Source: a virus (Duplodnaviria; Heunggongvirae; Uroviricota; Caudoviricetes). Taken from it: a stretch of DNA of 5,039 nucleotides. This document shows positions 1 to 5,039 of this stretch, piece by piece (position 1 is the stretch's first letter; each line of letters starts with the position of its first letter). The stretch is taken from IMG/VR virus record IMGVR_UViG_2778261066_000006; one strand, 5' to 3'. The translations under genes and the position numbers were made by a program. A model generated the notes under the pieces. That model was not told where the DNA came from and made no database searches. It saw only the letters and a program-made list of their open reading frames with translations.

Positions 1-279
1 ATGCTTCCATCGGAAACGATGATCTGGCAGCCTGAGTTCACAGATAAAACACTCTCCAGGAAACCCGGGGCGGTTCAGTTCGCCCCAAAAAAGCGAATCT
101 TTATCCGTTTTGGCAAAGGCTTTGACGAGTACCTCATCATTACCTTCTTCCCAAATTTTTTCCGCCGTTTTTTCGTCGTACCCGGCAATTTCAAAAATGG
201 CCTCGGCTATTTCTGGCGACGTATTACGCAGAGATGCCCATTCACCTACGTGATGAGCTTTCGCTTCTTGAGTTGGCAT
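1..279 (-). CDS. yccJ: YccJ-family small protein; frame stays open to the window edge
   Basis: Minus-strand translation from ATG (revcomp of 277-279) gives [67 protein letters not shown]..., matching E. coli YccJ as I recall it. It lies immediately downstream of wrbA in the same orientation, as in E. coli. No stop codon is reached before position 1, and the tail after WGE differs from the YccJ C-terminus I remember. Confidence 0.8.
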
Positions 280-299
280 GCGTATCCTCCTGTTGAAGA

Positions 300-866
300 T
301 TAGCCGTTAAGTTTGACTGCCAGACCAGCAACATATTCCCCCTGATAACGTGCGATCGACAGCTCTTCCTGGCTGGGCTGGCGTGAACCGTCACCGCCTG
401 CGATGGTGGTTGCGCCATATGGCGTTCCGCCGCGAACCTGCGAAACGTCAAATAACTCCTGGGCCGCGTAGCCAATAGGAACAATTATCATGCCGTGGTG
501 AGCAAGGGTCGTCCAGGTTGAAGTAATGGTCTGTTCCTGGCCGCCGCCGGTGCCGGTAGAGCTAAAAACGCTCGCCAGTTTGCCGTATAGCGCACCGGAA
601 GCCCACAGGCCGCCAGTCTGATCCAGGAAGGTACGCATCTGCCCTGACATATTGCCAAAGCGGGTCGGAGTACCAAAAATAATGGCATCGTAATCTGCCA
701 GTTCTTGCGGAGTTGCAACGGGGGCAGTTTGCGTTTTACCGCCTGCTTTTTCGAATAATTGCGGCTGCATGGTTTCCGGTACACGCTTAACGACAACTTC
801 CGCGCCATCAACTTTGCTTGCACCTTCAGCGACTGCGCGCGCCATCGTTTCAATATGTCCGTACAT
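300..866 (-). pseudogene. wrbA: wrbA NAD(P)H:quinone oxidoreductase (flavodoxin-like), 5'-truncated by insertion of foreign DNA; residues ~11-198 retained
   Basis: Minus-strand translation reproduces WrbA from [33 protein letters not shown]... to ...[13 protein letters not shown], with TAA stop at 300-302. The first ~10 codons (MAKVLVLYYS in E. coli WrbA as I recall it), the RBS and the promoter are absent. Sequence above 866 is AT-rich and unrelated, with an in-frame TGA at 867-869. Confidence 0.9.
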
Positions 867-2793
867 TCATTGTGGCATTGTTAAACAATTCACCCATTGA
901 ACTAAAAATTCTACTCCATCCTTCGTTAATCATATTCGGTTTATTAGGGTCACCAGAATACACAGGATTAAAGTCACTACCCACACCTACCCCAGATGGA
1001 TGCATATTAGCGTTTTTGACTACTTCCTGATTCATAAAATCCAGTGCTTTCTTCAATGCATATAAACCAAGAGTGACGCCTCTGATTTGTGGAATCATTG
1101 AAGCTAATGCTAACGCTGTTTCATAACCGTCATCAGCATAACCAATTGCAAGAGCACTACCTACACCACCAGCTACACCTTTCAGTTTTCCACCACCTTT
1201 ACCAGTAGCTACCTGACCAGCCACCTGATTAGCTCTTGTACCTAACGTTGTGATTGCTCTTGTCAGGTTCATAACCCCTGTAGTAGCACTGAATAGTGTC
1301 TTTGCAGATAACGCTATAGCAAGACCTTTGACAAAATTGATAAAACCATCACCGACTTCATCAAGTAGTTTTCGTTTAGTGTCATCAAGGCTGTAATAGG
1401 TCTTCTTAATCTGTAGAATCCAGCCTTCAAGGTGATTGTTAAAGATACGGATGTCATCTACACCAGCTTTAAGCATGTCGATAAGTCCACCGATAGCATC
1501 ACCAGCGATAGAAGAACTCATCCCCATTTCACTAAGCAGGTTACTCAGGCTGGATAAGAAGCCGTTTAACTCATCCTGTGAACCTGAGAAGATTTTCACC
1601 ATCGTATCATCCCAGTTGTTAGCCAGTTTCCCTAAAGCTGTCTGAGTGCTCTTAGCGACTTCAGCCCAGCCACCTGCTTTATCAATCATCAAGCCCATCT
1701 GTTTAGCGACTTTAGGGAGAGTATCAGCGGAAAGAATCTTCCCGTTTTTCATGGCTGCATCAAGCTCTGTAGCAGTCATACCCAATGCTTCAGCGAATAG
1801 TTTAAATGCACCTGCCATACGGTCACCTAACTGACCACGAAGTTCTTCAGCCTGAATCTTGCCCTTGCTCGCCATCTGCTCAAAAGCTTTCAAAATGCCG
1901 TTTAGCTCGTCGTTAGAAAGCCCCATTAAGCGACTCATAGCCGTTGCATTACCAAATAGCTCCTGTGTCTGTTCCTGTGACATAGAACCCTGAGCACCTG
2001 CTGCAAACTTAGCGTAGCTTGATAGCCCTTCAGAGATATTAAGACCTGTCTTGTCTGCTAAATTTCGAATAAATACCTCAGCTTCAGAGGCTTTATCACC
2101 AAGTACAAACTTAGCGGCTCTCTGTGCGGAATCTCGTTTAAGACCTGCATTCATAATGGCCTTGTAAGCGTTAAGAGCACCCATCACAGAGTAAAATGCA
2201 CCAGATAATTTAATCGCATTGCTTGCAAGATTATTAAATGCGTCGCTTGTATTGTTAATGCTGGCGGTCTTTGTCTGTGACCTGAGTTTATTCAACGTTT
2301 CACGAAGAGATTGATTTAATTTTGCAAGTTCAGCGTTAAACTTTTCACTTCCAATATTACCAGCCTTACCGCTTAAGCTGTAATACTGTGCTTTAAACAT
2401 TTTAGCCATCAGCGGATTAATATCACCAAGCTTAGACATATTCACGCTATGCGCTGCTGTGATTGCTCTGTTTCCGCTAATTCGTGGCTGTCTTGGTTGT
2501 TTTGGAGGATTAACAGTGTCATTAAATCTGGTGGTAAACTGGAAAGCTTTAGTATTTCTTGCTCTCTGTTCAATCTTGTCAAAGGTCTTATTAAACTTCC
2601 TTTCAAGCTGCCCTAAAGAAGCCGTTAAATTACTATCAAGCTGCTTTGTATTAATCCTGAAACCTTTGTTAAGGTTCTTTTCAATTCTTTGTGCTGACTG
2701 CAAAGCTGCCTTTTCAACTCTTTGCAAGCCCTTAATAACGTCCTCATTGAAGCTTAGCTCAACGATAAAACTATCAACTGTGAATTTGCTCAT
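850..2793 (-). CDS. phage tail tape measure-like protein (647 aa)
   Basis: Long ORF with SD AAGAGGTGA (revcomp of 2801-2809) 7 nt upstream of the ATG. It is alpha-helical, Ala/Lys/Gly-rich and of low complexity. The internal segment ...[57 protein letters not shown]... resembles the conserved tape-measure N-terminal-type domain. Gly-rich hydrophobic stretches near the C-terminus ([48 protein letters not shown]) are typical of tape measure proteins. Domain assignment is by recognition, not by search. Confidence 0.6.
853..870. other. Host/foreign junction inside wrbA (putative att core/boundary); exact crossover not determinable from one junction
   Basis: wrbA identity ends at ~866/867, and composition changes abruptly from GC-rich to AT-rich across this point. 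Confidence 0.6.
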
Positions 2794-2823
2794 TCATATT
2801 TCACCTCTTAAGTGTTCATATAC

Positions 2824-2875
2824 AAAAAAGGGAGAAACTACCGATATCACTCGATAATCTCTCCCGTTGATTTTT
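2824..2875 (-). terminator. Weak hairpin between the 69-aa ORF and the tape-measure-like ORF (GGGAGA/TCTCCC stem, 24-nt loop, T-runs on both sides); possible attenuator or partial terminator
   Basis: 6-bp stem 2830-2835/2860-2865, flanked by AAAAAA (2824-2829) and TTGATTTTT (2867-2875). The large loop makes it a weak candidate. Confidence 0.25.
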
Positions 2876-2892
2876 ACCCAACCAATTCTTTT

Positions 2893-3102
2893 TTAATGTC
2901 TGACAAGATAATGTAATTCCGTTTCACCTATGATTTGAGCATCAGAAGGAATACGGTCAATACACCACTTTGGAATCTTGCGTGTTTTTGGTTTGTGTGA
3001 GGTGATAACTTGACGTTTGTTTTTAATTCTTAAGGCTGGATTGGCTTGTAACTTTAAGTTTTCACAAACAGACCGAATAGTCTCTAGACGCTCTTCAAAC
3101 AT
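2893..3102 (-). CDS. hypothetical protein (69 aa), basic
   Basis: ORF with strong SD AAGAGGTGA (revcomp of 3106-3114) 3 nt upstream of the ATG, starting 23 nt after the stop of the upstream 236-aa ORF (operon-like). No recognisable domain. Confidence 0.55.
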   Translation of the reverse strand: MFEERLETIRSVCENLKLQANPALRIKNKRQVITSHKPKTRKIPKWCIDRIPSDAQIIGETELHYLVRH

Positions 3103-3125
3103 TAATCACCTCTTTTAATTCATAG

Positions 3126-3836
3126 TTAAAGTGTCTTGCTATACTTCTGAGAAATCTTAGTAAGCTGCTCAATATCAGCCTGCATAGCAATCTTCTTCTG
3201 CGTTTCATAGTCACTGATTAGTTGCTTCATAGCTCTAAGCTGGTTAGCAAGCTCTTGCTTAAATCTGTTTAATTTTTTGCTATGACGCTCAAGTAGATTC
3301 TTTTCAGCTAACTGACAAATCTCTTCATCTGTTTTATCAGACAGTAAAATATATGAACCTGTACCGCGTGAAGCTGGTCTAACATCAATTAAACGGAATC
3401 CTTCAGGGATGTTTTGAAGAACTTTTGAGATATTCTCTCTTGCTGTACCAAAACCATCATTATCTTCAACTGAGTAATATACGAATGGATTTTGTCTAAT
3501 TTCCACTTCAATATCAAAATCAGTTGGCTTTTCAGTCTCTTCAAAGTTCTTCACATTGTCGTAAGCGTCATCTAATCTAAGGCGCTGTGCTTTTAACTGT
3601 GGGTAATATTCACGCTCAAGATTAAATAGTGCTTCAGTTTTACCAATATCGGGCATCTCTTGAGGCTCAGGCGTCACAAAGATGATTTCCTTTGGTGACA
3701 TCTTTAGCGATTGCTCAAGCTTAATTCTTTCATCGTGTTCTTTACGCTGAATAGTGATAGCTGGATGTTCAGTCTGTGGCGACCAGTCACCGAAGCTATC
3801 AATCTTTTTACCGTTAATGTAAATATCGTTTGTCAT
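3126..3836 (-). CDS. hypothetical protein (236 aa), acidic/charged with predicted coiled-coil C-terminus
   Basis: ORF with SD AAGAGGA (revcomp of ~3844-3850) ~7 nt upstream of the ATG. Same AT-rich composition as its neighbours. First gene of an apparent 236aa-69aa-(tape measure) transcription unit. No recognisable domain. Confidence 0.7.
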   Translation of the reverse strand: MTNDIYINGKKIDSFGDWSPQTEHPAITIQRKEHDERIKLEQSLKMSPKEIIFVTPEPQEMPDIGKTEALFNLEREYYPQLKAQRLRLDDAYDNVKNFEETEKPTDFDIEVEIRQNPFVYYSVEDNDGFGTARENISKVLQNIPEGFRLIDVRPASRGTGSYILLSDKTDEEICQLAEKNLLERHSKKLNRFKQELANQLRAMKQLISDYETQKKIAMQADIEQLTKISQKYSKTL

Positions 3837-3865
3837 TGTTTTTTCCTCTTCTAAGCTAAAGTATT

Positions 3866-3951
3866 TCAGTTTTTAAAAAGCACACCTGACAGCCTACAAA
3901 CTTAGAAGAGACTTAAAAGGCGGTTTGCCAAGTATGCTTTTTAAAAACTGA
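3866..3951. repeat. Perfect 17-bp inverted repeat pair (TCAGTTTTTAAAAAGCA at 3866-3882; TGCTTTTTAAAAACTGA at 3935-3951) flanking a 52-bp spacer; candidate operator or regulatory element upstream of the 236-aa gene
   Basis: Directly read: the two arms are exact reverse complements. Each arm also contains the palindrome TTTTTAAAAA. The pair sits 30-115 bp upstream of the 236-aa ORF start. Confidence 0.5.
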
Positions 3952-3986
3952 ATAGCCCTAGATAATTTCTTATAAAGGGCTATTCA
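3949..3986 (-). terminator. Candidate intrinsic terminator (11-bp stem TGAATAGCCCT/AGGGCTATTCA, 16-nt loop) followed on the minus strand by G+UUUUU
   Basis: Perfect 11-bp stem read directly. On the minus-strand transcript the stem is followed immediately by GTTTTTAAAAAGC. Could terminate transcripts from the 107-aa gene, though it lies ~330 nt downstream of that stop. Confidence 0.4.
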
Positions 3987-4315
3987 TAAGGTGAAGAAAT
4001 TAAAAAAAACATCTGAAGGATTCAATAACGAATGAACAAGAGTACTTTTCGAGATGACCTCTCAGACTAACCTGAAAGGCCATGTAGCGAAAAGCATTGC
4101 ACCTTTCCAACTCAGAATATAGTTATCATCGATGTAGAGACGATTAATAGTTTAATTCAGGAAGAATTGCTCTCCCCTATATACAATCTTCTCATGCTTA
4201 AGGTTATTTGTCAACAGCTTTTTAACAGATTGGTAACATCAATTCTTATTTACTGTGTTACCCACCCAGCAACCAACAAATAGCCCTAGCAACGTCCAAG
4301 CAATTATTAAACCCA

Positions 4316-4639
4316 TTAGTGAACCCTCACAGAATCCGTAACCAGAATATTGTCAGCGTGCAAAATTACTATAGCCGCCTTGAGATATTGTTCAGGGCTA
4401 ACACTGTATTTGTTCGTTTCTTCGATAATAATACGCTTCATGTTTGAGTCTGTAATTGGTAGCATCATTCGAGGCTCGTTAAACTCCACCGACTGAATAA
4501 AGTCAGAGATGCTTTCCGCATTATCAGCCATTAACTCTAACAACTTATCAAAGTCAATGATAATACCTGCATCAGTGAAAGCCTGAATCATCATGGTGGT
4601 GTCGCTATCAACGAAAATCTGTAATTCGTAATTATTCAT
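4316..4639 (-). CDS. hypothetical small acidic protein (107 aa; ~18 Asp/Glu vs ~7 Lys/Arg)
   Basis: ORF with SD AGGAGA (revcomp of 4649-4654) 9 nt upstream of the ATG, TAA stop at 4316-4318. No recognisable domain. Confidence 0.65.
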   Translation of the reverse strand: MNNYELQIFVDSDTTMMIQAFTDAGIIIDFDKLLELMADNAESISDFIQSVEFNEPRMMLPITDSNMKRIIIEETNKYSVSPEQYLKAAIVILHADNILVTDSVRVH

Positions 4640-4910
4640 TTCTTAAAATCTCCTTTTTACCAGACCTCCTCAATCGCTCTGTAACGAGCTAAACAGTCTT
4701 TTTCAGGGGTAGCCTGTACAGTGGTATTACCCACCCTAAAATAAGGTAGTTTTTTGCGTTAGAATGCGATTGAGAGCGTCTGAGAAGCTGTTTTTCTAAT
4801 TTCTCTTAAAGTCTCGGACTTGCATAAGATTTTTTGGTCTGGTATCGGCTCTGTTACCATTTCGATGGATAATTTGCTTGTTGGATTGATAGCCATGATA
4901 AAGGAACCAG

Positions 4911-4933
4911 GGTGATGCTGCCAACTTACTGAT
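4911..4933 (+). repeat. IS1 left terminal inverted repeat (IRL)
   Basis: GGTGATGCTGCCAACTTACTGAT is the canonical IS1 terminal repeat. Confidence 0.85.
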
Positions 4934-4965
4934 TTAGTGTATGATGGTGTTTTTGAGGTGCTCCA

Positions 4966-5039
4966 GTGGCTTCTGTTTCTATTAGCTGTCCCTCCTGTTC
5001 AGCTACTGACGGGGTGGTGCGTAACGGCAAAAGCACCGC
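4966..5039 (+). CDS. insA: IS1 InsA (N-terminal 24 codons; partial at window edge), GTG start
   Basis: Translation from GTG at 4966 gives (M)[24 protein letters not shown], the InsA N-terminus including its CxxC motif. Confidence 0.85.
   Translation, partial: [24 protein letters not shown]

Follow-up and report, generated by a model that had tools for sequence, protein, structure and literature searches.

The window analysed here, a stretch of 5,039 bp that matches contig PTRT01000178.1 (assembly GCA_002965745.1) without a difference when the latter is reversed, contains a remnant of the Escherichia gene wrbA that is joined at positions 866/867 to AT-rich foreign DNA. As judged from sequence comparison, this joint is a secondary deletion scar and not an attachment (att) junction, and the window represents a defective copy of a family of integrative elements that target wrbA or yecE by means of a large serine recombinase. 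Taken as a whole, the explanation in which such an element was inserted at a crossover core within wrbA and later suffered a deletion of about 2.9 kb is considered very likely. An earlier note, made from the letters of the window alone, had described wrbA as interrupted at about codon 11, intact from there to its stop codon and deprived of its 5' part by AT-rich DNA, and this description is borne out by the alignment to solved structures, by the end of collinearity at position 866 and by the drop in GC content.

The 188-amino-acid (aa) open reading frame (ORF) of the remnant corresponds end to end to residues 11-198 of E. coli WrbA (PDB 2R96 and 3ZHO; E about 1e-120), with two conservative substitutions. 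Collinearity of the yccJ-wrbA region with E. coli K-12, with the I2 locus, with S. flexneri and with Escherichia sp. stops at exactly position 866, and the GC content is 0.552 in 300-866 and 0.393 in 867-4910. The first 10 codons of wrbA, its ribosome-binding site (RBS) and its promoter are not present in the window. Past 865/867 the sequence is that of the interior of a phage-type tape-measure protein (TMP) gene, the ORF of which was identified by Pfam TMP_3, TIGR02675 and PHROG 4036 (E = 7e-92). The parental sequences read ...GTCCGTAC-AT/GGAATAA... and ...CTTGCAAT-AT/TCATTGTGG... (the slash marks the breakpoint) and have only AT in common; this dinucleotide, at 865-866, is the sole microhomology and makes the breakpoint ambiguous by 2 bp. 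A search for longer homology at the deletion endpoints found none, the hexamer CAATAT being present in both parents out of register with the junction.

The family to which the foreign DNA is assigned consists of chromosomal elements of about 11.5 kb with a fixed gene order and size, comprising a large serine recombinase gene, a Dit-like baseplate gene, the TMP gene, small ORFs, a replication initiator and Dam. In the intact copy I2 (locus L001, element at 6880-18000), the order is yccJ, wrbA (201 aa), the recombinase (547 aa, on the opposite strand), the baseplate protein (262 aa), TMP (726 aa), ORFs of 69, 236 and 107 aa, small ORFs, a helix-turn-helix/replication protein, Dam, about 1.3 kb free of genes, and ymdF; further intact copies are those of loci L002, L023, L024 and L025. 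In the I2 recombinase, Resolvase, Recombinase and Zn_ribbon_recom domains were recognised; the protein falls into PHROG 95 (integrase), and its nearest relatives of solved structure are phiC31 integrases. The 262-aa protein is Dit-like, and a 325-aa protein resembles O-type replication initiators. The gene yecE (DUF72) hosts the same element, with order and size unchanged, in J31, RM9154-C1, AR434 and SEV4; the recombinase of this type has 507 aa and is 35% identical to that of the wrbA type, and the element splits its target mid-gene, the two fragments being annotated as partial pseudogenes. Of 5,426 complete E. coli genomes, 404 (about 7%) gave matches at the level of TMP, always in the chromosome, and the family occurs also in Shigella, Salmonella and Citrobacter.

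In comparison with the complete E. coli genomes, the window is collinear with the element at 88-94% identity. From 865 to 4650 it is collinear with I2 and 91% identical to it, its TMP is 95% identical to that of J31, and beyond the window the element continues collinear with J31 in loci L005 and L015. The end of the wrbA body, where intact copies carry the serine-recombinase gene, lacks such a gene in the window. By blastn, window 75-866 corresponds to I2 5998-6789 and window 865-4650 to I2 9717-13484; the two segments overlap by 2 bp in the window, and the 2,927 bp of I2 that separate them have no counterpart there. On the wrbA side, the missing segment comprises the 8 native wrbA bases that adjoin the core (codons 8-10) and the core itself, and on the element side a replacement N-terminus with its RBS, the recombinase gene (547 aa), the gene of the Dit-like protein (262 aa) and the 3' 252 bp of the TMP gene, which hold 83 C-terminal codons of the 726-aa protein. 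Intact TMP copies read ...NNATMN-IARFNHPELNN...EDD*; the TMP of the window departs from them after native codon 643, and its tail runs out of frame into wrbA. On the TMP side, the breakpoint falls at an ordinary internal coding position, where the I2 and J31 copies do not differ.

The true crossover core was defined by comparing the two junctions of I2 with the empty wrbA site of K-12. The empty site reads ...GTACATGGAATAATAAAGCACCAGAACTTTAGCCAT..., and the junctions of I2 read ...GGAATAATAAAGCAC/TAGTATTCTTGCC... and ...GCTATGTAAAAGCAC/CAGAACTTTAGCCAT... (the intact recombinase-proximal junction is also given as ...GGAATAATAAAGCAC/TAGTATTC...), with a common 7-bp core, AAAGCAC on the plus strand, which corresponds to codons Val6-Leu7 of wrbA. 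The recombinase-proximal end of the I2 element brings AGGAGAACAATGAT-ATG AGT GTT AAG GCA AGA ATA CTA GTG CTT..., by which the 5' end of wrbA is rebuilt (L001 6790-6880) with MSVKARI- in place of MAKV- and with an AGGAG RBS of its own. The WrbA of I2 is complete (201 aa, N-terminus MSVKARILVLYYSMYG...), and RefSeq annotates it as wrbA. The full element resides in wrbA in at least 13 E. coli genomes, and in those, among the matches listed, wrbA is annotated as intact.

In the window, wrbA codon 11 runs into the interior of TMP at a breakpoint that is still 8 bp away from AAAGCAC, and the core is absent from this junction. The 8 bp between breakpoint and core are found in neither piece, and therefore simple integration cannot explain the junction. 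The view that 866/867 is an integration junction in the wrbA locus was right in that the DNA is horizontally acquired and the locus is a real attachment locus, but the att site itself lies elsewhere, its core being 8 bp further toward the start of wrbA.

A genuine att junction was observed 13.5 kb away. In L015 (assembly GCA_022833075.1), positions 1-251 contain the ymdF-wrbA intergenic region and the wrbA promoter region and end at 230-251 with ATGGCTAAAGTTCTGGTGCTTT, after which the element DNA begins; this is the normal core with the same arm as in I2, and the ORF at this far junction reads MAKVLVLLHS*. In this genome, wrbA codons 1-7 and codons 11-198 stand at opposite ends of a 13.5-kb insert that contains two IS21-family elements and one IS1 (IS, insertion sequence). 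The earlier note was right to propose a look at the other junction: the wrbA 5' fragment is present there. A large serine recombinase was found neither in the 20 kb inspected nor in the window, L004, L005, L014 or L015, and the sole recombinase-like gene near the far end encodes an unrelated small resolvase/invertase of 182 aa (L015 819-1367). The integrase of the wrbA site is a large serine recombinase that normally lies at the junction contained in the window and not at the other one; its absence here fits a deletion, the window copy being a defective member of its family.

The following course of events would account for both junctions. An integrative element of about 11.5 kb would have entered wrbA at the core AAAGCAC (codons 6-7) by means of its large serine recombinase, and its recombinase-proximal end would have supplied a new RBS and N-terminus, leaving wrbA a complete ORF of 201 aa. 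Later, about 2.9 kb would have been lost by illegitimate deletion at a 2-bp AT microhomology, which would have joined wrbA codon 11 to the TMP interior; the lost segment would have held codons 8-10 of wrbA, the replacement 5' end together with its promoter, the genes of the recombinase and of the Dit-like protein, and 83 TMP codons. Insertions of IS1, of an IS629-type element and of two IS21-family elements would have followed.

The junction of the window recurs, its 40-mer (847-886) being present exactly in five assemblies (GCA_000155105.1, GCA_022833075.1, GCA_027566015.1, GCA_002965745.1 and GCA_012532395.1), two of the records being longer than 4.6 Mb. No contiguous match across the junction was found in any of the 5,426 complete E. 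coli genomes, and the TMP halves of the matches in complete genomes all start at window 865. In GCA_027566015.1 and GCA_012532395.1 (L006 and L016), which have the same wrbA junction, yccJ is intact (75 aa), and in the window and two other assemblies it is truncated by an IS629-type element; the deletion is therefore older than the insertion of that element. The chromosomal flanks share about 91% identity with E. coli, which points to a sister species, and the lineage of the window is probably Escherichia albertii. This assignment rests on the identity of the flanks and on one of the five genomes (CH991859/GCA_000155105.1), which is probably that of E. albertii TW07627. According to a published paper, TW07627 is an E. 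albertii strain with the whole-genome shotgun accession ABKX. When genome contigs were scanned for a 25-mer of the wrbA side, matches came from E. coli, S. flexneri, Escherichia sp. and unrelated metagenome-assembled genomes and none from E. albertii, and therefore no empty site of the same species was obtained.

Other origins of the junction have to be weighed against insertion followed by deletion. The earlier note had pointed to an Stx2-converting lambdoid prophage of the 933W/Sp5 type, in which case 866/867 would be a primary attL or attR. Sp5 of O157 Sakai does use wrbA, breaking the gene within its first 14 or so codons, but it diverges from native wrbA after ...CGTTTCAA(C)ATGTC (about codons 13-14), 6 bp inside the breakpoint of the window; in the coordinates of the K-12 locus (L003), the divergence of Sp5 lies at about 3673 and the breakpoint of the window at 3679/3680. 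Three distinct breakpoints, those of Sp5, of the window deletion and of the serine-recombinase core, are thus found within about 20 bp of wrbA, and that of the window matches neither att site. In Sakai, wrbA is adjoined by the tyrosine integrase ECs_1160 and an excisionase, whereas the window has the truncated TMP in that place. A megablast search of 860-5039 against 50,697 phage records retrieved only IS1 and about 150 bp of Felixounavirus TMP, and no Stx or lambdoid phage. The prophage origin is accordingly abandoned as extremely improbable.

A product of the serine recombinase itself, arising from a variant attP in TMP or from a deletion to a pseudo-site in TMP, is likewise very unlikely. 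The att sites of large serine recombinases usually measure about 40-50 bp, and pseudo-sites can be used; with sites of that length, a breakpoint only 8 bp from the core would fall inside the att footprint. Strand exchange by these enzymes, however, takes place at the dinucleotide in the middle of the core, and the junction is 8-15 bp off, with the core missing on the side of the window; moreover, the normal core was used at the far end of the insert, and the TMP breakpoint is the internal coding position described above. An assembly chimera, formed from repeats in a short-read draft contig, might be suspected since the window is a 5-kb contig with both ends inside IS copies, but the junction itself contains no repeat, and the identical 40-mer in five independent assemblies, with two records above 4.6 Mb, argues that it is not an artefact; the chance of a chimera is practically negligible.

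The best explanation therefore remains insertion of the element at the wrbA core and a subsequent deletion, and its consequences concern both the gene and the element. Residues 1-10, which are missing from the remnant, comprise the first beta-strand and Ser10, the start of the conserved SMYGH stretch, for which the flavodoxin-like folds in general lead one to expect a role as the FMN phosphate-binding loop. A scan upstream of Met11 revealed no Shine-Dalgarno sequence and no sigma-70-like promoter. With beta-strand 1, Ser10 and every expression signal lost, the remnant is very probably a non-functional, 5'-truncated pseudogene, in agreement with the earlier expectation that the truncation removes beta-strand 1 and probably inactivates the protein. 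The element would be immobile since the recombinase and one att site have been lost, and we infer that it can no longer excise precisely; precise excision, even if it happened, could not restore wrbA.

Several points weigh against this account or limit its reach. The intact comparators are E. coli copies that are 88-95% identical, none being of the species or lineage of the window, and the ancestral state is deduced from relatives. The same holds for the native codons 8-10 of E. albertii wrbA, and the loss of wrbA function and the immobility of the element are likewise deductions. The deletion may have arisen by replication slippage or by end-joining at the 2-bp homology. The TMP ORF overlaps Met11 of wrbA, and its stop codon (850-852) lies 14 nt downstream of Met11; low-level translation from Met11, coupled to the overlapping TMP ORF by weak re-initiation, is possible, and a folded WrbA enzyme produced in this way is unlikely.

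The features of the window are compiled in the table.

Features of the 5,039-bp window (positions are those of the window)
Feature	Position	Strand	Remarks
IS629/IS1203-type (IS3 family) end	1..77		97.5% over 80 bp to Sakai IS1203/IS629 copy; contig ends inside
yccJ	78..279	-	last ~9 codons removed by IS629-type insertion; matches K-12 YccJ up to ...DSLFWGE, beyond which the frame enters the IS
wrbA remnant	300..866	-	codons 11-198 + stop; start region, RBS and promoter gone
Truncated TMP	850..2793	-	647-aa ORF: 643 native codons + 4 out-of-frame wrbA codons (VRTY) + stop
Deletion junction (as judged from sequence)	865..867		wrbA ends at 866; TMP begins at 865/867
Terminator-like hairpin	2830..2865	-	15-pair stem, then TTTTTT; consensus scan only
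69-aa ORF	2893..3102	-	same position in all intact copies inspected; no family match
236-aa ORF	3126..3836	-	conserved in element; RefSeq label 'transposase'
107-aa ORF	4316..4639	-	same position in all copies; no family match
HNH endonuclease gene, 3' fragment	4796..4910	-	38 C-terminal residues; cut by IS1; weak Pfam HNH_3
IS1 end	4911..5039		99% to IS1 in phage P1 and other records; contig ends inside; complete IS1 in L015

The IS copies on both sides of the window are probably the reason why the assembly broke at its ends. The complete IS3-family transposase of the yccJ side is visible in the long contigs L014 and L015, and on the other side IS1 is followed in L015 by an IS21-family element, with a second IS21-family copy further on. 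The fragment of the HNH gene corresponds in translation to the C-terminal 38 residues of a 95-aa HNH protein of the J31 copy. The terminator-like hairpin sits between the 69-aa ORF and the start of TMP, directly upstream of the latter, and for this reason expression of TMP and Dit would seem to need a promoter of its own or antitermination.

The proteins of 69, 107 and 236 aa had no match to any family, defence models included (Pfam, NCBIfam, PHROG and PADLOC), and the PADLOC defence models gave no credible match to the proteins of the element. The 236-aa protein has more than 3,000 homologue clusters, none of them with a Pfam domain; its AlphaFold2 model consists mostly of long helices (pLDDT 70), and a fold search yielded no significant match, the best BFVD match having E = 0.07. 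Its label as a transposase is unsupported by Pfam, NCBIfam, PHROG or PADLOC and seems to be a misannotation that has been passed on. Upstream of this ORF, a non-coding gap of 480 bp contains two inverted repeats (3865-3986), one with arms of 27 nt that are 34 nt apart (3865-3952) and the other a 17-nt palindrome (3949-3986), without a match in Rfam. Scans of the window and of the I2 locus with Rfam (at the gathering threshold) and for tRNA genes gave no match. At 2367-2404 of L015, three exact 12-bp units GTCGGTTAAGAA are arranged in tandem with a spacing of 13 bp, with a degenerate fourth unit just upstream; these repeats are iteron-like and may mark a replication origin.

The finding itself is ordinary mobile-element decay and nothing unusual, but it bears on the use of wrbA as a marker. 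Occupancy of wrbA in Escherichia does not imply the presence of an Stx phage, and calls of an occupied wrbA, by polymerase chain reaction or in silico, as in the typing of Shiga toxin-producing E. coli, can be set off by an unrelated serine-recombinase element. In the lineage of the window, the wrbA pseudogene would stem from the secondary deletion and not from integration; an element that preserves its target by a replacement 5' end can still destroy that target upon decay. The wider interest lies in the intact family, which is common, is apparently undescribed in the searchable literature and combines a serine integrase with two genes for tail assembly that were acquired from a group of strictly virulent phages.

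Among known systems, Sp5 and 933W at wrbA share with the insertion in the window the target gene and the end at which it is hit, with foreign DNA between the wrbA body and ymdF, and the phage end of Sp5 also gives an alternative short N-terminal stretch (MINHILR-HVETMA...). Unlike the family described here, Sp5 is a lambdoid phage of about 62 kb with a tyrosine integrase and an excisionase, which diverges about 15 bp from the serine core and shares no sequence with the insert of the window. In O157 Sakai, the Sp5 junction (L022 11140-11200) makes an in-frame alternative start, MINHILRHVETMA..., and RefSeq still calls this wrbA a pseudogene. The likeness to large-serine-recombinase elements of the phiC31/Bxb1 type consists of a recombinase of 507-547 aa at one end of the intact relatives, a 7-bp core and intragenic insertion; the window copy differs in lacking the recombinase and one att site. 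In rebuilding the 5' end of its target, the wrbA-type element resembles phage 21 and e14, which rebuild the 3' end of icd.

The tail genes of the family link it to Felixounavirus, a group of FelixO1-like, strictly virulent myoviruses of about 87 kb. Along its whole length, the Dit-like protein of the intact copies shares 67-73% identity with the product of the gene directly downstream of TMP in Felixounavirus, and the TMP of the element is about 33% identical to Felixounavirus TMP over 500 residues, with one stretch of about 80% identity in DNA; the TMP/Dit pair is syntenic in element and phage. When all ORFs of the element were compared by tblastn with a complete Felixounavirus genome, only TMP, Dit or ORFs overlapping them in other frames or strands were matched. 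The intact relatives combine an integrase and a replication module of their own with a lack of capsid, terminase and lysis genes, as satellites do: head, terminase and lysis functions are not annotated, and Pfam and PHROG gave no match to them among the 10 proteins scanned. Matches to the element in IMG/VR are prophage calls of about 25 kb in isolate genomes and not virome particles, and give no evidence of packaging.

The intact family resembles PLE of V. cholerae, a satellite of the virulent myovirus ICP1, and other satellites in being small, in having a serine integrase, a replication initiator and iteron-like repeats, and in carrying two genes homologous to those of a virulent myovirus group, Felixounavirus. 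No relationship in sequence to the hallmark genes of PLE, phage-inducible chromosomal islands (PICI) or P4 was found: none of P4 psu, delta and sid, of PICI alpA, pri-rep and ppi or of the PLE hallmarks appeared in scans of 10-11 proteins with the general collections Pfam, PHROG, NCBIfam and PADLOC, a set without models dedicated to satellites. The literature yielded nothing on a satellite with TMP and Dit, on a Felixounavirus satellite or on a serine-recombinase element at wrbA, and we know of no described satellite that carries the TMP/Dit pair. The published Tai 'tail assembly inhibition' proteins are different, small proteins. It is conceivable, as a tentative idea with the odds rather against it, that the intact family is an undescribed satellite or anti-phage island directed against FelixO1-like myoviruses, which would be PLE-like and would act on tail assembly; its TMP and Dit could then join or poison the tail-initiation complex of the helper.

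The window copy itself finds its counterparts in the decaying cryptic prophages of Escherichia and Shigella, with which it shares a deleted integrase, a truncated structural gene and insertions of IS1, IS21-family and IS3-family elements. Its only particular feature compared with these is that the deletion would have killed the host gene that the element had preserved.

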